From the sequence record OQ689735.1: DNA of 64,000 bases; one strand, given 5' to 3'. Below the pieces are notes generated by a model, which saw only the letters and a list, made by a program, of their open reading frames with translations, was not told where the DNA came from and ran no database searches. Positions 1-31,076 of this stretch are shown here, piece after piece. A program made the position numbers and the translations under genes. The number at the start of each line of letters is the position of its first letter. Position 1 is the stretch's first letter. This DNA comes from Escherichia phage 4E10.

Positions 1-1266
1 AATAGCACCTTTAATACCAGAATCTTTGAGCATATCAGTCAAAATTCCTCGGTGGTATTTTTCCATTACTAAATTAGTTTTTGTCTTAACAATTTTATCA
101 AGTTCTTCTTGAAGCAGTGCTATTTCATCAGCATGGTCAATAAACTCAGAAGATGCTTTTTCTATAGCCGCTTTAACCTTTTTAGCTTTATCTACTGTCG
201 TGATTAGAGATTGCTTTTTATTGCGAATATCATTTGCCAACGACTGCTGGGTTTTAATATTATCTCGGTATTCATCAACAAGAACTTTTAAATTATCACG
301 GTGTGTTGAAAGCTGTTCAAACGAATGCGTGCATTCAGAAACTTTATCTTTAATTTTAGAAACAACTTTATCACCGGAACTCAATTGTGACAAACAGGTT
401 GGACATAATCCACCTTCGTGATACATATTAATGACTTTATTATACGAGTCAATTTTTGATTTAATTAAAACTGCTTCTTGACCGATTTTATTAAATGCAT
501 CAGTCGGGTCTTCGTCTAAAACAATATTAACTAATCTTTCGTTAGCTTCTTCTATTTCCGATTTTAGCGTTCTAGCTTCTTTTGCCAAATCATCATACAT
601 ATTTTGCAGACGAGTAAGGTTGTCACCCGTTAATTTTTTCTGGCGTTCAACGTTATCATTATATATTTTAATTTGTTGGATAATACTATCTTTTTTAACA
701 TCAAGCACTTGGTTTTGTGAATTTAATTCACGTATTAGTGCTTTATTAAGCTTATCCATTTCAGCTAATGTTCCTACCTCAAGCAGGTCTTCCACAAGCT
801 TTCTTCGTGCAGGGGTCGACAAACCCATGAAAGGGGTATACCCTGCTGTACCAAGGACAACAATCTGCTTGAAACTGGCATATGACATTCCGATAAGCTG
901 TTCAAATTCTGCTTGGAAATCTTTACTGCTGGCAGATTCATTAAGACGTGTACCGTTAACGGTGATTTCGAAAACGTTTGGTTTTTGTCCTCTTTTGATA
1001 TAGTACTTTTTCTCATCATATTCCATCCACAGTTCAACTAAAAGTTCTTTCTTATTTGTGCTGTTTATTAATTGACCTTTCTTTACATCACGAAATGGCT
1101 TACCAAAAAGCCCAAATGTGATGGCTTCTAACATAGTAGACTTACCACCGCCATTTCGTCCAGTAATAAGAGTTTTTTGAACCTTATCTAATTGAATGTC
1201 AATAGGATTTCCACCTACTGACATTATATTTTGATACCTAACTCGGTTTAGTTTAAAATTCTTCAC
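1..1266 (-). CDS. 46: Recombination endonuclease subunit gp46 (Rad50/SbcC-like ATPase), N-terminal ~420 aa; 3' end lies beyond window start
   Basis: Minus-strand frame from GTG at 1264-1266 reads MKNFKLNRVRYQNIMSVGG...GRNGGGKST (Walker A); positions 1-60 translate to KYHRGILTDMLKDSGIKGAI, matching recalled T4 gp46. AAGGA ribosome-binding site upstream. Not in ORF track because it is truncated. Confidence 0.9.
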   Translation of the reverse strand, partial: MKNFKLNRVRYQNIMSVGGNPIDIQLDKVQKTLITGRNGGGKSTMLEAITFGLFGKPFRDVKKGQLINSTNKKELLVELWMEYDEKKYYIKRGQKPNVFEITVNGTRLNESASSKDFQAEFEQLIGMSYASFKQIVVLGTAGYTPFMGLSTPARRKLVEDLLEVGTLAEMDKLNKALIRELNSQNQVLDVKKDSIIQQIKIYNDNVERQKKLTGDNLTRLQNMYDDLAKEARTLKSEIEEANERLVNIVLDEDPTDAFNKIGQEAVLIKSKIDSYNKVINMYHEGGLCPTCLSQLSSGDKVVSKIKDKVSECTHSFEQLSTHRDNLKVLVDEYRDNIKTQQSLANDIRNKKQSLITTVDKAKKVKAAIEKASSEFIDHADEIALLQEELDKIVKTKTNLVMEKYHRGILTDMLKDSGIKGAI

Positions 1267-8449: not shown

Positions 8450-8920
8450 TTAATCATGTTTCCACACCCCATCGGTATTTGACCAAAGTCGCTGATTATC
8501 TGATCCTCGCCACAGCTTTTTAGTCGGAAGATTTTTCTCATACTTCCCATCAATAATAACATCAACATATTTAAGCATTTCTAGTTGTTTAATATCTTCA
8601 AACTTATATCCTGTCCACAACCAAATGCTTTTATTGGGATAAAGATTTTTAATAGTTTGAACCACAGAGTGAATCACGTCTCTGTTATCAGGATAGAGAG
8701 GGTCACCTCCGGTTATAGTCAATCCTTCTATATAATCATTATTCAAACATTCAATTAATTGTTCTAGTGTTTCACCAGTGAATGGAACACCATTTCTAGC
8801 ATTCCATGTTGATTTATTATAACACCCTTCGCATTTATGCAAACAACCTGTAACGAAAAGAACGGTCCTGCAGCCAGGACCATTAACAAAATCGCAAGGA
8901 TAAAATCTATCATAATTCAT
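8450..8920 (-). CDS. nrdG: Anaerobic ribonucleotide reductase activating protein (radical SAM)
   Basis: 156 aa with CxxxCxxC-type cluster (GCLHKCEGCYN); matches recalled T4 NrdG; overlaps nrdD by 4 bp. Confidence 0.9.
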   Translation of the reverse strand: MNYDRFYPCDFVNGPGCRTVLFVTGCLHKCEGCYNKSTWNARNGVPFTGETLEQLIECLNNDYIEGLTITGGDPLYPDNRDVIHSVVQTIKNLYPNKSIWLWTGYKFEDIKQLEMLKYVDVIIDGKYEKNLPTKKLWRGSDNQRLWSNTDGVWKHD

Positions 8921-10734
8921 TGGTGCTTAACCCTATGCATGATTTCTTTATTTTTGCCGAGATTAAATCCGCGTTCGTTCGGATTTCCCAAATAACCACA
9001 TGTTCTTCTTATTGTGTTCATCTTTTTAGGATCAGTTTCTCCACAAATAGAACAAACAAATCCATTTTCAGTAGGAGTCATTTCATGGGTACTTCCACAT
9101 GTAAAACATTTATCTACTGGCATGTTAACACCAAAATAATCTAAATGTTGTGCAGCATAATCCCATACGGCCTCAAGACCCTTTAAGTTATTTTTCATAT
9201 CAGGAAGTTCAACATAAGAAATGTGACCACCTGTCGCAATGAAATGATATGGCGCTTCACGAGAAATCTTTTCAAACGGAGTAATATTTTCTTCTACTGA
9301 AACATGGAAACTGTTAGTGTACCAACCTTTATCGGTAACATCCTTTACACTTCCATATTTTTCGGTATCAAGTTTACAGAAGCGATAACAAAGGTTTTCA
9401 GCAGGAGTAGAATACAAGCTAAAAGCAAAACCAGTTCTTTCAGTCCACTGCTTAAGACGAGCATTCATTTTAGTTAAAATTTCTTGTCCAATATCACGAC
9501 CGACAAGAATATTCAATTCGTGAATACCAATGTATCCTAAGGACACTGAACTTCTACCGTTTTTAAATAACTCAATTATATCATCATCAGGTTTAAGACG
9601 AACCCCGAATGCACCTTCTTGGTAAAGAATAGGAGCAACAGTAGCTTTAACTCCTTTTAAGGAACTAATTCTACACATCAATGCTTCAAAACATAAATCC
9701 ATTCGTTCATTGAACAATTCGATAAATTTCTGTTCATTGAACTGTGTTCCAATATAAGAATCTAATGCGATACGAGGAAGATTCAGTGTTACAACACCGA
9801 GATTATTACGTCCATCAAGAATTTCATTACCAGTCGAATCTTTCCATACGCTCAAGAAACTACGGCAACCCATTGGAGAAACAGGAATAGATGAGCCGGT
9901 GATAGCTTTATTGTTCTTAGCCGAAATGATGTCAGGATACATTCTTTTGCTTGCGCACTCTAAAGCAAGCTGCTTAATATCATAGTTCGGGTCGTCTTTA
10001 TAAAGATTAACACCTTCTTCAACGAACATAACAAGTTTAGGGAAAATAGGAGTTATCCCATCACGACCAAGACCTTTAATACGATTTTTCAGAATTGCTT
10101 TCTGAATCATTCGTTCAGTCCAGTCAGTTCCCGTACCAAATGTAATTGTTACAAAAGGAGTCTGTCCGTTTGAACTAAAGAGAGTATTTACTTCATATTC
10201 ATAAGCTTGGAATGCATCGTATACGTCTTTTTCTGTTTTAGATTGAGCATAATTCAACGCATCAGCAATTTGCCATTTTTCTGCATCCTCAATATGTTTT
10301 GCATAGGTGCGTTTAACATAAGGAGAAAGTACTTTATCTACATTCGCAAAAGTCGTTCCGCCATATTGATGGGAAGCAACCTGTGCAGTAATTTGTGCCA
10401 TAATTGCAGTAGCAACTCCAATTGATTTAGGAGTTTCAATCTGTGCATTACCTAGCTTAAATCCATTCTCAAGCATTCCTTTTAAATCTACTAAACAACA
10501 ATTAGTAAATGGAAGAGCAGGGGAATAATCAATATCATGGAAATGAATAATTCCGCTTTCATGCGCTTTCATAATAAAAGACGGGACCATATTTTTGGCA
10601 ATGTGTTTAGACACAATACCAGCCATAAGGTCCCGTTGAGTTGGAAAAACACGAGAATCTTTATTAGCATTCTCGTTTAAAAGGTCTTTATTAGTTTTAT
10701 GAATCAATCCTTCAATTTCTTTTTCAATTGTCAT
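8917..10734 (-). CDS. nrdD: Anaerobic ribonucleoside-triphosphate reductase, class III (glycyl radical enzyme)
   Basis: Continuous 605-aa ORF; C-terminal Cys cluster and RRTCGYLG glycyl-radical motif. No intron interrupts the frame. Confidence 0.95.
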   Translation of the reverse strand: MTIEKEIEGLIHKTNKDLLNENANKDSRVFPTQRDLMAGIVSKHIAKNMVPSFIMKAHESGIIHFHDIDYSPALPFTNCCLVDLKGMLENGFKLGNAQIETPKSIGVATAIMAQITAQVASHQYGGTTFANVDKVLSPYVKRTYAKHIEDAEKWQIADALNYAQSKTEKDVYDAFQAYEYEVNTLFSSNGQTPFVTITFGTGTDWTERMIQKAILKNRIKGLGRDGITPIFPKLVMFVEEGVNLYKDDPNYDIKQLALECASKRMYPDIISAKNNKAITGSSIPVSPMGCRSFLSVWKDSTGNEILDGRNNLGVVTLNLPRIALDSYIGTQFNEQKFIELFNERMDLCFEALMCRISSLKGVKATVAPILYQEGAFGVRLKPDDDIIELFKNGRSSVSLGYIGIHELNILVGRDIGQEILTKMNARLKQWTERTGFAFSLYSTPAENLCYRFCKLDTEKYGSVKDVTDKGWYTNSFHVSVEENITPFEKISREAPYHFIATGGHISYVELPDMKNNLKGLEAVWDYAAQHLDYFGVNMPVDKCFTCGSTHEMTPTENGFVCSICGETDPKKMNTIRRTCGYLGNPNERGFNLGKNKEIMHRVKHQ

Positions 10735-25408: not shown

Positions 25409-25596
25409 TATTCTTCTACATGTTGTTTACGACCTTTCCTATCAATAAAGGTATATTCAACGAATGTTCCAATATAGTCTTTATCTACATCATGTGGACT
25501 ATTAATTGGGCATTTAGTACGGCAAATGCGTTCCCATTGACGAATAATTACTGCTTTGTTTTTAGGATCAAACGGATGCGGGTAATGTACTTTCAT
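25384..25596 (-). CDS. Hypothetical protein
   Basis: ORF track 70 aa. Confidence 0.45.
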   Translation of the reverse strand: MKVHYPHPFDPKNKAVIIRQWERICRTKCPINSPHDVDKDYIGTFVEYTFIDRKGRKQHVEEYCLKVTWL

Positions 25597-26047
25597 AATC
25601 CACCACTATTAAATCAATATCAGGAGTAAACATACCGATTAATTTAGAAACCTTATCCCAATCGCCGCCAGCAATACCACAACCTATGCGTGGAATGTAA
25701 ATTACCGGTTTAAACAAAAGGATTTCTGCCTGTAGATTTAATTCTATCATGCAGTTTACTAAAGCACCATAATCAAGATTAGGACCCGGTTCGTATTGCG
25801 TATACAAATTATAGCATATACCAAATCCCGTAGGATTATGTTTAAAAACAATAGACATATCGCCTAATTTATCACGAGAACCGTACTCGGTAGTGGTTTT
25901 ATCTATTTCTAAAATTTTGGGATAGGCTCTTGCTAATTGACCTGCTACGCCAGAGCCCATTGTGTGGAAGCAATTGCACCCGTGCGCAATAATATTACCT
26001 TGAAGAAATAGGGCGACAATATCGCCCTTGATATATTTTACAATCAT
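25568..26047 (-). CDS. Macro-domain (ADP-ribose binding/processing) protein
   Basis: GDIV...IAHGCNCFHTMGSGVAGQLARAYP and IYIPRIGCGIAGGDW resemble the two conserved macro-domain loops; 159 aa. Confidence 0.6.
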   Translation of the reverse strand: MIVKYIKGDIVALFLQGNIIAHGCNCFHTMGSGVAGQLARAYPKILEIDKTTTEYGSRDKLGDMSIVFKHNPTGFGICYNLYTQYEPGPNLDYGALVNCMIELNLQAEILLFKPVIYIPRIGCGIAGGDWDKVSKLIGMFTPDIDLIVVDYESTLPASV

Positions 26048-26385
26048 CTAGTACTCAATCCTCGATTATAAGAATCTACCAAACGGTCAACCATTGAATG
26101 ACAAGCGGCTTTATCTTTCTCCTCCGCAACTGAACATTCTAATGTATTCCACTTTTTAGCATATCGTTTTAATAATGTATCGTTTTTGTATCTGCTTGAT
26201 TTATCTCTTTCTCCGTCTTTATATGCATATATTAATTTCTGTGCAAATTCAGCTTGGCATGCTTTATTTTTCCCACAATAATCTGCCGCAGTGCGGTTTA
26301 CATACTCTCTAATTTCAGTATATGATGTATCTGCTAACGCAGAAAATGAAATTAATCCTATACATAAAACCAAAATTTTAGTCAT
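26044..26385 (-). CDS. Secreted small protein (signal peptide)
   Basis: N-terminus MTKILVLCIGLISFSALA then polar, Cys-containing domain; 113 aa. Confidence 0.5.
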   Translation of the reverse strand: MTKILVLCIGLISFSALADTSYTEIREYVNRTAADYCGKNKACQAEFAQKLIYAYKDGERDKSSRYKNDTLLKRYAKKWNTLECSVAEEKDKAACHSMVDRLVDSYNRGLSTR

Positions 26386-26923
26386 TTACTATTTCCAAAA
26401 GTTTATTATTTTTAAGGTAATTAGCCTTTTCTAGGACTTCAGAAGCATATTTAGAACCTGCTTTAACATTCCATCCCGAATTATAAGAGGATATCGCCTT
26501 TCTTATATCGCCCTTATGTATATTTAACCAATAAGAAAGTTCAATGTACGCCCAGGAAGCTGAATTGGACCGTTTATTCAACATTCTTTTTATTTCAGTA
26601 TCGGTCATATTATAACCAAGTTCCTTAACTCTCGCTCGCATTGTCGGCAAATAATTTTGGAACATTCCATAGGCATGATGCTTTGGTTTAGATTTTAAAT
26701 TAACTCCGGCAGAGCTTTCTTGCCATAAAATAGCAGCCATTATATGACCTAATCCGCTCTTGTGGATATTTTTGTGTGTTTTATATTTTCCATCCTTAGA
26801 AAATTGTTCCCCGAATTGATACGCGTAACGCATGTTATCGAGTTGGACATTACTGAAAGTATGCTCGGAGCTATGTGCCATCATTGAAATGGCCAATAGA
26901 CCAGCGAGTAGTGCTTTTCTCAT
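26378..26923 (-). CDS. Secreted lytic transglycosylase-like protein (SLT domain)
   Basis: Signal peptide MRKALLAGLLAISMMAHS; SLT-like motifs ES (WQESSAG), GMFQ and YNSG. Confidence 0.6.
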   Translation of the reverse strand: MRKALLAGLLAISMMAHSSEHTFSNVQLDNMRYAYQFGEQFSKDGKYKTHKNIHKSGLGHIMAAILWQESSAGVNLKSKPKHHAYGMFQNYLPTMRARVKELGYNMTDTEIKRMLNKRSNSASWAYIELSYWLNIHKGDIRKAISSYNSGWNVKAGSKYASEVLEKANYLKNNKLLEIVND

Positions 26924-26930
26924 GCTTACC

Positions 26931-27392
26931 TCATTGAGTTTTAATTACTGCTTTAGAAGCCTTTCCTGGTAAACGACGACTGTTGATAATTGCCATTCTA
27001 CATTGAAGTGACGGGTCTTTGAACTTCGCATTAGGTTTACAAACTGTAAATCCAAGCCAAAGATTTCCATCTGTGATTTCTAAACGTCCAGGACGATATT
27101 CAACCCCATCAATAAAATTCTCGTCAATGTCAGGACGCGGAGGCATACTCAGGAATTCATTAACTTCTAAAACATGGTCTTTTATTTTGTGGAATAATTC
27201 AAAAACATATGTCTCATCAATCTCCCGTTGAATTGCACGATCAAGAAGATGCTGAGAATATTTTAGATGAAACGATGAGACCCCTGCTGCTTTTGATGCC
27301 TCACGAATCTCATTGTTAATTTGACGAAACTCCGACTCAAAGTGACGACGAAGCTTATTTCGACGGATAAAAACTTCTGTATTGATAGTCAT
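26931..27392 (-). CDS. regB: Endoribonuclease RegB
   Basis: 153 aa, MTINTEVFIRRNKLRRHFESEFRQINNEIREA...; matches recalled T4 RegB; early promoter directly upstream. Confidence 0.93.
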   Translation of the reverse strand: MTINTEVFIRRNKLRRHFESEFRQINNEIREASKAAGVSSFHLKYSQHLLDRAIQREIDETYVFELFHKIKDHVLEVNEFLSMPPRPDIDENFIDGVEYRPGRLEITDGNLWLGFTVCKPNAKFKDPSLQCRMAIINSRRLPGKASKAVIKTQ

Positions 27393-27419
27393 GTTATTCT
27401 CCTCTTAACTGATAGAAAA

Positions 27420-27449
27420 ATTATACCACAGTCAAGAGGAAAAGTAAAC
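27420..27449 (-). promoter_or_regulatory. T4-type early promoter upstream of regB
   Basis: Minus strand GTTTAC, 18 nt, TGG-TATAAT. Confidence 0.6.
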
Positions 27450-27451
27450 AG

Positions 27452-27730
27452 TTATTCTTTAAATCTAATCAATTTATTCATAGACTTTGAAACTTCTGCA
27501 CGGACCTCATGTAAGTTTTTAAGCTGTTCAAGACGCTGCTCATAATAAGCAATTTCATCTTCTTCGAGACAGTCCTGTGAATCTTCTTTAAGATAGCGTG
27601 CATAGTCCTGGAAAGCGTTACGGATTACTTCCTGGAAATCATCAAGACTTTGAATTTTCTTAGGAGCAGCAGATACACGACGAGGGGCAGTATAATACTC
27701 ATAACCAAACCCTGCGCTTAATTGAGCCAT
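27452..27730 (-). CDS. Hypothetical small protein
   Basis: ORF track 27452..27772; ATG at 27730 ([13 protein letters not shown]...); TAATG overlap with upstream gene. Confidence 0.5.
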
Positions 27731-27996
27731 TAGTATTTTTCCTCTGGTTGGAACACTGCACGACAAGCCCACATACTGGCTTCTTTGAGTTTCGTTTTAG
27801 CAATAGTTAACTGATCGAGGCTTTCAGCATAATTCTTTGCGAATTCATAGTCTTCACAATTATCTAGTGCTTCCCAGAATTCGTCATATAAAGCGTCAAA
27901 GATAAGTCCTAAACGAACTTCAGCATCTTTGATAGCATTCACTTTACCGATTTTCTCTTCAGTATGTGGCTTATAACCCTTAATGTCTTCAATCAT
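27730..27996 (-). CDS. Hypothetical small protein; candidate Acb2-like nucleotide sponge by position only
   Basis: ORF track 27730..28032; ATG at 27996 with GAGGAAG site ([17 protein letters not shown]...). The Acb2 call is inferred from position relative to regB, not from sequence I can recall. Confidence 0.5.
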
Positions 27997-28210
27997 ATTT
28001 GACTTCCTCACCAGTACATAAATCGTATTCAACTAAACGAATAGGTTCATGAATGCCATATCCCTGAACAGAAATTTCTGTCGTAGGATAAATTCCACTA
28101 ATATCACCCATATTCCACGCTTCATTAAATTGCTGTTCGCCTGAATTACTAAACCATTCTGCGAAAGCATTTAGCACATCTTTAGAACCTTCAATAATTA
28201 TCTTTGCCAT
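27989..28210 (-). CDS. Hypothetical protein
   Basis: ORF track 73 aa. Confidence 0.5.
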   Translation of the reverse strand: MAKIIIEGSKDVLNAFAEWFSNSGEQQFNEAWNMGDISGIYPTTEISVQGYGIHEPIRLVEYDLCTGEEVKYD

Positions 28211-28572
28211 TACAGACTCTCAGTAAAGGTACGAGCAATAACGTCGCGCTGCTGTTCCGGAGTCAGAGAGTTAAAGCGAACTGCATAACCGGATACACGG
28301 ATGGTCAGCTGCGGATATTTTTCCGGATGCTTAACTGCATCTTCCAGAGTTTCACGACGCAGAACGTTAACGTTCAGGTGTTGACCACCTTCAATTTTAA
28401 CTGTAGGTTGTGGCTCAATTTCAATTTCACGGGCATGCAAACCATAGAAAATTTCTGGGTCTACAAAAGAGTCCTCTTTAAAGGTTTTAGAGACAATAAT
28501 TCGTGCTTGAATACCATCTTCAAAATAAATAGTACCTTTATGTGTGCCTTCAAGAATTTGATATGCTTTCAT
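28210..28572 (-). CDS. Autonomous glycyl-radical cofactor (GrcA/YfiD-like; T4 Y06I homolog)
   Basis: C-terminal [59 protein letters not shown] is essentially the E. coli GrcA glycyl-radical domain. Confidence 0.85.
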
Positions 28573-28579
28573 ATAAACC

Positions 28580-28906
28580 TCAATTAGAAAATAAATTTAT
28601 CCAAGATTGTTCTTTAATTAAAAATGGCTCAGAATCATATGCCATTAAACTTTGCGTAATTAATCCTTTAAAAGGTCCATCAATAAATTCCATGGTAAAA
28701 TATGGAATTTTATTCATTAGCCGTGCATTAGGAGCAGTGCACAAAACTCTGCATCCTTTGAATACGCCTTTTTGTAATTTGTATTGCTTGGGATAAAATT
28801 CGCTCAAAATGTTATTATTTGCCAAAATTTCAAAATGATTTACCAATTTATTTTTAATAGTTTTTGGCGAAAAATAAAGATATTCGAAAAGCTGTGTATC
28901 TGTCAT
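28580..28906 (-). CDS. Hypothetical protein
   Basis: ORF track 28580..28960; start trimmed to [12 protein letters not shown]. Confidence 0.45.
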
Positions 28907-29493
28907 CATTGCATTCCGATTACGAAAAACTGCGGACGAGTAATACCACCAATGCAACATTTACTATTACAGCAGTAGTGTACAGTGTCAATATGGACAC
29001 TATAAATCTTATCCATATCAGGAGATTTGACAGGCTCATCAATTATATACAAAATTCGCGAAAGCGATAAACCTCTGAACTTGCTTCCTTTATTACCAAT
29101 AAAACTGCGCACAGAATCAGTAAATAAACGAAAACGTATATCATCATTAGAATAACGCGAAAATTCCTTTTTGATGTTATTTGCAGAAATTTTAGCGTAA
29201 GCTGAAGTATTAGAAAGAACAATAACTGTTCCGCCATCATACAGCCAATTAGCAGCAAAGTTAGTCACAGCAATTGATTTGCCGGATTGACGTCCACCAT
29301 CTATGCGAAGTGTGCAGTACTGTTTGAGTAAGTCTTCAAATGGCGGGGTATATTCGTTTTTACAAATTTCTTCTACTCTAGCATCAGAATGGTGTGTAAA
29401 AGCATTCATCAGGGATAGATAAGGACCAGTTAAAAATGTTCTCATTTTATTCTCTCTAAATTTGGGCCATTCCGTGGCGCATGAATTGTCCAT
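28906..29493 (-). CDS. Small P-loop NTPase
   Basis: Walker A GGRQSGKS and Walker B-like ILYIIDEP; start (29493 or 29445) uncertain. Confidence 0.5.
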   Translation of the reverse strand: MDNSCATEWPKFRENKMRTFLTGPYLSLMNAFTHHSDARVEEICKNEYTPPFEDLLKQYCTLRIDGGRQSGKSIAVTNFAANWLYDGGTVIVLSNTSAYAKISANNIKKEFSRYSNDDIRFRLFTDSVRSFIGNKGSKFRGLSLSRILYIIDEPVKSPDMDKIYSVHIDTVHYCCNSKCCIGGITRPQFFVIGMQ

Positions 29494-29586
29494 TTCTGTA
29501 TTTACCCATTACCGCACTCAGGCTCGACCTTATTACAGGTTGGCGGGAATCCCTCACAAAATCATGAGGTCCAGGTTGTTCCCATA

Positions 29587-30060
29587 TTATTTGAATGATT
29601 TGACGTACTGAATAGAACCTTTACTATTCACAAAGGCAATTTTACCATTTTTGTTATACATGGTAGCAGTACGCTGATAGCCATAAGTTTGTTTACCAGA
29701 TTGATAACCAACTAATGCAAAATTATCTTCGCCCATTTTATTCTGCTTAGCGCGGATACGTTCATGACCGTGCGCCATAAGAACCTTAGCGTCGCCAGTT
29801 GCAATGGATCTACGAGTTTTTTCATCTTCAACTGTATTAACAAAGTCGTCAAATGAATCAAATTTAGCATGAGATTTATTATACAGTTTTCCATCTACTG
29901 CATAATTATATCCCTGTACATCCATCTCAACTTCTGTACCATCATCCAATACAGCAGTGATTTTTTGACCTTTTTTAAATTTCAAAAGATCAGTAAAAGA
30001 TTCAGCAATAATTTGAGAATTAATAGCTGCTTCAGTAATAAATTCTTGATATGTTTTCAT
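29587..30060 (-). CDS. Internal (head-packaged) protein with capsid targeting sequence
   Basis: N-terminus MKTYQEFITEA is the T4 internal-protein capsid targeting sequence; 157 aa. Confidence 0.7.
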   Translation of the reverse strand: MKTYQEFITEAAINSQIIAESFTDLLKFKKGQKITAVLDDGTEVEMDVQGYNYAVDGKLYNKSHAKFDSFDDFVNTVEDEKTRRSIATGDAKVLMAHGHERIRAKQNKMGEDNFALVGYQSGKQTYGYQRTATMYNKNGKIAFVNSKGSIQYVKSFK

Positions 30061-30069
30061 ATGTTTCCT

Positions 30070-30486
30070 TTAAATGTAAATATTTTTACCGTAATACTTG
30101 TACCAATGTGGTTTCATTAAAATTTTTTCATCAAGTCGTTGTTGACTCAATTTAATAGCTGATTTGCATGGATTATAATCATTTTTCCATTCTGCTGGAA
30201 TATCGCTGATGTCAGGAACTTCAGTATCTTTTATACTAAACCCGCGTTTTAAGCATTCCGTTATAATGTCTGATTGACGCTTTCGCAAAAATTCTAACTT
30301 ATCGTAAAAGAAAGTAACATGACCAGAACCTAAAATAAACTCGGAAGATATTTTAAAATCTTTAACCCGCTTACCATTTGCCACATGTTTACGAACTATA
30401 CCAAAAACACGCGGCAATTCACGGTATTCTGCGATTAAATGTTGATCAGCAAGTTCAGATACTAAAGTCAAATTAATACGAGTCAT
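30070..30486 (-). CDS. denV: Endonuclease V (pyrimidine-dimer DNA glycosylase)
   Basis: 138 aa, [29 protein letters not shown]...WYKYYGK; matches recalled T4 DenV. Confidence 0.93.
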
Positions 30487-30510
30487 TTTATCCCTCCAAG
30501 TAACTGTGAA

Positions 30511-30541
30511 TATACTATCACAATTCTAGGAGAAAGTAAAC
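30511..30541 (-). promoter_or_regulatory. T4-type early promoter upstream of denV
   Basis: Minus strand GTTTAC with TAGTAT -10 candidate. Confidence 0.45.
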
Positions 30542-30545
30542 AACT

Positions 30546-31076
<531 letters not shown>

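Follow-up and report, generated by a model that had tools for sequence, protein, structure and literature searches.

The closest described relatives of the gene analyzed here are YfiD (GrcA) of Escherichia coli and Y06I of phage T4, which are named as two validated spare-part proteins in the passages of PMC8683613 that cite Wagner et al. 2001 (BBRC 285:456). According to these passages, both proteins receive a glycyl radical from the pyruvate formate-lyase (PFL)-activating enzyme, form a complex with O2-cleaved PFL, and restore its activity. Residues 1-60 of YfiD are disordered in solution and matter for the binding of cleaved PFL, with a fourfold lower radical installation upon their removal, and residues 61-127 copy PFL 693-759 with a beta strand, the loop that bears the radical, and a helix at the C-terminus (PMC8683613). 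A role in nucleotide metabolism was suggested in a 2006 comparative paper from the shared Gly_radical domain (PMC1524935). Exchange between a phage-borne metabolic gene and its host counterpart has been described for cyanophage psbA, in which patches of host-like sequence and GC in the phage copy were attributed to intragenic recombination (PMC3900582).

The DNA analyzed is a stretch of 64,000 nucleotides from Escherichia phage 4E10 (OQ689735.1), hereafter the window. A first-pass annotation made from the sequence had described one of its genes as a spare glycyl-radical domain homologous to GrcA/YfiD and had called it notable rather than new. The description is supported by the analysis, as the gene is orthologous to Y06I and rescue is reported for the T4 protein in PMC8683613, and the judgment on novelty was correct since the gene is already known. 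What goes beyond that annotation is that the identity with GrcA reaches synonymous nucleotide sites and ends abruptly at codon 60.

Location and layout of vs.6

The window belongs to the genome of a T4-like phage (Tequatrovirus), and the 22-kb region around vs.6 is 95-96% identical to phages such as PhiZZ23 and PE37. The order of the neighboring genes, determined by tblastn of T4 proteins, is tk, tk.4, vs, vs.1, regB, vs.3, vs.4, vs.5, vs.6, vs.7, and vs.8, and the cluster of regB and vs.3 to vs.8 has the same order and strand in the window as in T4. The previously annotated boundaries of the open reading frame were exact. It is the sole GrcA-like reading frame within the window and encodes a product of 120 aa with a computed mass of 13.8 kDa. 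The features of the gene are as follows:

28210..28572, minus strand: vs.6 (Y06I) coding sequence, 120 codons plus TAA, ATG start (ORF listing, T4 NP_049730, Pfam, PHROG)
28578..28581, minus strand: Shine-Dalgarno GAGG, 5 nt upstream of the vs.6 ATG, overlapping the vs.7 TGA stop
28396..28572, minus strand: 5' phage-type half, codons 1-59, GC3 0.18, without nucleotide similarity to E. coli grcA
28220..28394, minus strand: tract of probable host origin, gene positions 179-353, codons 60-117, structured glycyl-radical domain
28273..28299, minus strand: RVSGYAVRF motif, residues 92-100, invariant in the alignment and aligned to the PFL and GrcA radical loop
28288..28290, minus strand: GGT codon of Gly95, predicted radical site, equivalent to GrcA G102 and PflB G734 in the alignments
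28210..28219, minus strand: last 10 nt of vs.6 (G AGT CTG TAA), phage-specific, outside the putatively converted tract, overlapping the vs.5 start region

The final A of the vs.6 TAA is also the A of the vs.5 ATG, giving a stop/start overlap of one base. A scan of 27300..30300 for promoters and terminators returned sites no more numerous than in shuffled sequence, and an Rfam scan of 26000..31000 returned no relevant match.

Several observations were made on the neighboring genes. Two genes downstream of vs.6 lies the vs.4 homolog (27733..27996, minus strand), with 99% identity to T4 Vs.4 and a match to Pfam Acb2_Tad1_hairpin (E = 1.4e-19); its product is the known anti-CBASS cyclic-nucleotide sponge Acb2. 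The vs.5 reading frame (27989..28210, minus strand) encodes 73 aa and matches PHROG 1986 over its full length. T4 Vs.5 is annotated with 58 aa, and its alignment to the window changes frame near 28159; a 1-nt indel is seen in the DNA alignment, and the T4 reference vs.5 may contain a frameshift or sequencing error. At 29587..30486 (minus strand), the order after vs.8 is an internal-protein-like gene with a weak ipII match followed by denV, compared to denV, ipII, and ipIII in T4. The product of the internal-protein-like gene starts with MKTYQEFI, which we take to be a capsid-targeting signal; denV of the window is 78% identical to that of T4, and the region is a variable internal-protein locus. 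The tk.4 homolog (25583..26047, minus strand), a phosphatase with an A1pp motif in T4, is 57% identical to its T4 counterpart while its neighbors reach 97-99%, and looks like a locally replaced or fast-evolving gene.

Family membership of the Vs.6 protein

The only Pfam domain above the cut-off in Vs.6 was Gly_radical (PF01228), with E = 2.8e-18 and 66.8 bits against a gathering threshold of 22.2, and the match spans the last 41 of 106 profile positions. PHROG 1209 covered the full length of the protein, residues 1-120, with E = 1.2e-62. Among structures, Vs.6 aligned over residues 22-120 with E. coli GrcA (PDB 6OWR, E = 8.6e-42), and its C-terminus aligned to residues 697-759 of PFL (1H16, E = 5e-26). 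Its identity to these solved structures is enough to establish how the C-terminal domain folds. The best NCBIfam model was TIGR04365 "spare_glycyl" (E = 3.7e-45), for which the score of 153.3 bits lies below the curated GrcA equivalog cut-off of 170 because the N-terminal half of Vs.6 has diverged. In its structural features, the protein agrees with the autonomous glycyl-radical cofactors of the GrcA type (TIGR04365, IPR011140).

The C-terminal 60 residues, earlier described as almost identical to E. coli GrcA, are in fact identical at 60 of 60 positions, and over the last 63 residues the count is 61 of 63. This 60-residue stretch is near-invariant across the GrcA proteins of Enterobacterales. 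Compared to the C-terminus of PflB, the last 63 residues of Vs.6 are identical at 49 positions, radical loop included. The RVSGYAVRF glycyl-radical site that had been pointed out lies at residues 92-100 with G95 as its glycine, which aligned with GrcA G102 and PflB G734; loss of this glycine or its flanks from the alignment to GrcA and the PFL C-termini had been named as what would speak against the annotation, and both are kept. All quantitative comparisons with grcA were made with a database-fetched E. coli gene, while a GrcA sequence with Y38 was used in the protein alignment; residue 38 is F in strain SK1144 and in 6OWR.

The N-terminal halves were compared as profiles of nine phage and ten bacterial sequences with hhalign, which gave a probability of 95.8% and E = 8.2e-9 at 28% identity over 61 columns. 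By this measure, the N-terminal halves of Vs.6 and bacterial GrcA are still homologous. Between Tequatrovirus and Mosigvirus, the dN/dS of the vs.6 5' half is about 0.12-0.2, a ratio that indicates purifying selection on the N-terminal half. Several phage records label the protein as a full-length pyruvate or 2-ketobutyrate formate-lyase. This label was rejected, as Vs.6 has only 120 residues compared to the ~760-residue barrel with Cys418/Cys419, and the TIGR01255 score was 88.9 bits against a cut-off of 994.

Vs.6 of the window and T4 Vs.6 (NP_049730) are identical at 119 of 120 residues, with R73 in the window and H73 in T4, and the gene order is the same, which bears out the T4 counterpart Y06I named in the first-pass annotation. 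The T4 reference annotates NP_049730 (vs.6) at the corresponding place as "autonomous glycyl radical cofactor GrcA". Vs.6 can safely be equated with Y06I, since no other GrcA-like protein was found annotated in the examined stretch of T4, its mass is ~14 kDa, and its RefSeq name is that of GrcA. Judged by identity and position, the gene is the ortholog of T4 Vs.6/Y06I, and as such already known.

Mosaic of vs.6 with E. coli grcA

At the level of DNA, gene positions 179-353 of vs.6 are identical to E. coli grcA at 174 of 175 nt, including an exact run of 157 nt. By BLAST, 28210..28394 (185 nt) was 98.4% identical to grcA in 5426 of 5426 complete E. coli genomes, while the vs.6 5' half had no nucleotide match to grcA in the same 5426 genomes. 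Aligning the DNA of the window, T4, and E. coli with one another places the switch at codon 60, which is 6-7 residues inside the structured domain as defined for YfiD. The GC content climbs from about 0.3 to 0.49 within vs.6, and GC3 amounts to 0.18 in the 5' half, 0.42 in the tract, and 0.43 in E. coli grcA. The differences from E. coli grcA are concentrated in the final ~10 nt of vs.6, where they recur in other Tevenvirinae. The chance of 174 matches in 175 positions at a per-site probability of 0.8 is about 5e-16, and the host-specific, domain-sized tract is a statistically unambiguous, real feature.

Two further candidates were rejected. As donors of the tract, pflB and tdcE are only ~83 and ~79% identical, respectively, compared to 98% for grcA. 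Longer host tracts seemed to occur in some Mosigvirus (BLAST matches to grcA 155-384), but base by base the left boundary was unchanged, and BLAST had extended through weak similarity.

Klebsiella-type tracts and homologs in other phages

Orthologs of vs.6 occur in the same neighborhood in Jiaodavirus (Mineola, Nispero, and KPV15), which are T4-like phages of Klebsiella. Their 5' half is 72% identical to that of the window and has phage codon usage (GC3 0.23). Their tract, with a GC3 of 0.60, matches K. pneumoniae grcA at 94-97% identity and E. coli grcA at about 87%, and it starts at the left boundary seen in the window. A shared crossover zone would lie at the edge of the conserved EGGQHLNV block. 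The E. coli and K. pneumoniae tracts differ at 22 diagnostic sites. Of these, the window and T4 have all 22 in the E. coli state, while the Klebsiella base was found at 18 of 22 sites in Nispero and at 16 of 22 in Mineola.

Across the phage collection, about 505 records were >=95% identical to the E. coli tract and 77 records were 95-99% identical to the Klebsiella tract. The grcA tracts of Salmonella, Enterobacter, and Citrobacter had no match above 95% in this collection. A general matching of the tract to the host was accordingly rejected as a claim; the matching is limited to the sampled T4-like phages of E. coli and Klebsiella. In Karamvirus KMB17, the tract has a GC3 of 0.22 and about 75% identity to any bacterial grcA. 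The tracts of Karamvirus KMB17, Krischvirus kaaroe, Aeromonas phage 44RR2.8t, and the T5-like phages have phage-like or intermediate codon usage and only ~75% bacterial identity, and look like unconverted or long-ameliorated states.

The distribution of the two tract types suggests that gene conversion from host to phage took place independently at least twice. It seems fairly probable that the structured-domain half of vs.6 was overwritten at least twice in the same crossover zone, by E. coli DNA in Tequatrovirus and Mosigvirus and by Klebsiella DNA in Jiaodavirus.

Some of the homologs differ in their coding state or annotation. In KPV15, the vs.6 homolog (325..686 of the extracted locus) has 362 nt and a 1-nt deletion near codon 42 that leads to two annotated reading frames; this points to either a pseudogene or an error in sequencing, and the Klebsiella-type tract of the homolog is intact. 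Tequintavirus (T5-like, with Salmonella and E. coli as hosts) have a gene for a GrcA-like protein of 122 aa at 320..688 of the extracted loci, with the same radical loop, a very different N-terminal half, and a tract ~75% identical to any bacterial grcA. In the records, this protein is labeled as 2-ketobutyrate formate-lyase or as acetyltransferase-related. The homolog of the E. coli phage Krischvirus kaaroe is longer, with 138 aa (170..586 of the extracted locus), and contains LLDAVEH as in GrcA of Klebsiella and Salmonella, not the LEDAVKH of E. coli; a close nucleotide match of the kaaroe homolog to any host was not found. Among the sources of host grcA, CP125156.1 (K. pneumoniae, 5.37 Mb) and NZ_AP026896.1 (Aeromonas caviae, 4.94 Mb) are "plasmid" records with sizes typical of chromosomes.

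Age and direction of the transfer

Bacterial divergence was assessed with 80 grcA genes and one K. pneumoniae copy. Within the tract, the dS between the window and E. coli is 0.023, and the tracts of T4 and Mosigvirus RPN187 have zero synonymous differences from E. coli. The corresponding values between E. coli and other bacteria are 0.047 for cryptic Escherichia, 0.41 for Citrobacter, 0.62 for K. pneumoniae, and 1.07 for Salmonella. These distances place the transfer later than the split of E. coli from its sister genera. The divergence of bacterial grcA tracks taxonomy in both halves of the gene, and the codon usage of the tract is that of the host, from which it follows that the transfer went from host to phage.

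Tequatrovirus and Mosigvirus are separated by a dS of 0.36-0.45 in the 5' half and of 0.02-0.15 in the tract, which is 3-15 times lower, and the raw differences in the two parts differ with a Fisher p = 0.001. The tract therefore entered, or was refreshed, after these genera split, either by independent entry in each genus or by a single entry followed by phage-phage recombination. As the tract has only 175 nt, independent conversions and one conversion spread by phage-phage recombination are indistinguishable. On the preferred reading, vs.6 is an old full-length phage homolog of grcA, in which positions 179-353 were recently overwritten with E. coli grcA DNA, probably by homologous recombination.

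Two other origins of the host-like half were weighed. The sharp step in GC and codon usage inside one gene would also arise as an artefact if host reads had been merged into the phage contig through faulty assembly or contamination. However, the T4 reference genome has the same in-frame junction, the E. coli-like sequence recurs at >=95% identity in independent phage records, about 505 of them, and the 5' half of grcA is present in none of these, so that we give an artefact no credence. That an ancestor of the T-even phages acquired grcA once, long ago, and that the 3' half has been conserved since then without recent exchange with the host, is in line with the left boundary shared by Tequatrovirus, Mosigvirus, and Jiaodavirus and with the near-invariance of the 60 encoded residues across Enterobacterales. 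Yet constraint on the protein cannot fix synonymous sites, and in Karamvirus and Krischvirus these same codons are saturated with synonymous changes, with dS above 2. The tract is specific to E. coli (dS 0.02 compared to 1.07 between Salmonella and E. coli), Klebsiella phages hold Klebsiella states at 16-18 of the 22 diagnostic sites, and the Tequatrovirus-Mosigvirus dS falls 3-15-fold from the 5' half to the tract, all of which speaks against an undisturbed ancient gene. We consider such an acquisition highly improbable compared to recent overwriting by host DNA.

Proposed function

We hold, at a probability of roughly 85%, that vs.6 (Y06I) of Tequatrovirus encodes an autonomous cofactor of the GrcA/YfiD type with PFL repair as its mechanism, and that the part encoding its structured domain was recently overwritten by the host gene. 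During infection, the phage would produce the 13.8-kDa Vs.6, whose N-terminal half would recognize host PFL cleaved by oxygen at G734, and whose C-terminal domain (residues about 54-120) would stand in for the lost PFL C-terminus. The host PFL-activating enzyme PflA, a radical-SAM enzyme, would install the radical on G95, from which it would move to PflB C419, and pyruvate could again be turned into acetyl-CoA plus formate. Fermentative energy and carbon flow would thereby be maintained in the micro-aerobic infected cell. Activation by the PFL-activating enzyme (PFL-AE) and rescue in vitro are reported for the T4 protein, which is 99% identical to Vs.6 of the window. The benefit to the phage in vivo, a pyruvate-to-acetyl-CoA flux kept up in micro-aerobic infection, is inferred, and no in vivo phenotype of a vs.6 mutant was found in the literature.

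The first-pass annotation had also noted that the phage carries nrdD and nrdG, and both were recovered within the window by Pfam:

8917..10734, minus strand: nrdD, anaerobic ribonucleotide reductase, a separate glycyl-radical enzyme (Pfam NRDD 1.1e-171, Gly_radical 1.2e-25)
8450..8920, minus strand: nrdG, radical-SAM activase of NrdD (Pfam Fer4_12 9e-49, Radical_SAM 9e-8)

With these two genes in the same genome, ~18 kb from vs.6, Vs.6 could serve as a spare part or partner for NrdD of the phage, another enzyme that oxygen cleaves at the glycyl radical, and not for host PFL; the role in nucleotide metabolism suggested in PMC1524935 agrees with this. Such a role is very unlikely, as the sequence of Vs.6 does not significantly resemble the NrdD radical loop: the best BLASTP match between Vs.6 and NrdD of the window had E = 2.6 and lay away from the loop, while the Vs.6 domain equals GrcA at 60 of 60 residues and the PflB C-terminus at 49 of 63. 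The T4 protein is moreover reported to work with PFL and PFL-AE, and a homolog is also found in T5-like phages. Slightly less remote, and still unlikely, is a decoy or modulator that redirects host fermentation in vivo by soaking up PflA or by occupying PflB or TdcE in their cleaved or intact form. Purifying selection acts on the diverged N-terminal half (dN/dS about 0.12-0.2), and as this region governs the binding of cleaved PFL in YfiD, the phage protein could bind differently; the literature search, which returned no phage phenotype in vivo, is compatible with such a role as well. Against it, Vs.6 keeps the radical glycine, its catalytic domain does not differ from that of the functional host protein at any residue, and the T4 protein is reported to reconstitute activity, not to inhibit it. 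Repair of host PFL is thus the function preferred here.

Implications of the mosaic

T-even phages degrade the host DNA and contain modified cytosine in their own. To our knowledge, they are usually described as having almost no DNA in common with their hosts. The gene vs.6 itself is ordinary for a T4-like phage, and what is new here is its DNA mosaic with host grcA. In the literature searched, no paper was found on the nucleotide identity of vs.6 and grcA or on host-specific variants, which is not proof of their being unpublished. If true, the mosaic would represent ongoing host-to-phage gene conversion in strictly lytic T-even phages, for which a description elsewhere was not found. The overwriting may in that case persist because the spare part stays matched to PflA and PflB of the infected host.

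The tract can serve as a natural marker for the frequency and homology length of recombination between virulent phages and their hosts, and as a dated example of a phage metabolic gene "refreshed" from the host. It also offers a ready experimental system. T4 Vs.6/Y06I is, according to PMC8683613, one of only two biochemically validated glycyl-radical spare parts. Within Vs.6, the half identical to the host has the chemistry, whereas the phage-specific half corresponds to the region that recognizes damaged PFL in YfiD.

Comparison with known systems

The nearest known system is T4 Vs.6, which has the same length, is encoded in the same slot near regB with vs.5 and vs.7 as neighbors, and shares the mosaic with E. 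coli grcA at the nucleotide level. It differs by H73, where the window has R73 as in E. coli GrcA, and by three synonymous changes in the last third of the gene. E. coli GrcA (YfiD) is likewise a small stand-alone glycyl-radical protein with the same two-part layout and identical C-terminal 60 residues. Vs.6 is 7 residues shorter than GrcA, however, and its N-terminal half is only ~28% identical and has neither the conserved LNSFWLLD nor the Cys residues found in bacterial GrcA. Unlike grcA, vs.6 belongs to an operon of a lytic phage in which stop and start codons overlap. The glycyl-radical domain of PflB (PDB 1H16) and TdcE has the radical loop RVSGYAVRF in common with Vs.6, but PflB aligns only with the last ~63 residues, and the N-terminal half of Vs.6 has no match in it. 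Cyanophage psbA resembles vs.6 as a phage-borne host metabolic gene with host-like patches. In contrast to psbA, vs.6 belongs to a strictly virulent T-even coliphage with modified DNA, and its host-like sequence is one tract of 175 nt that coincides with one structural domain and is near-identical to grcA of the infected species.
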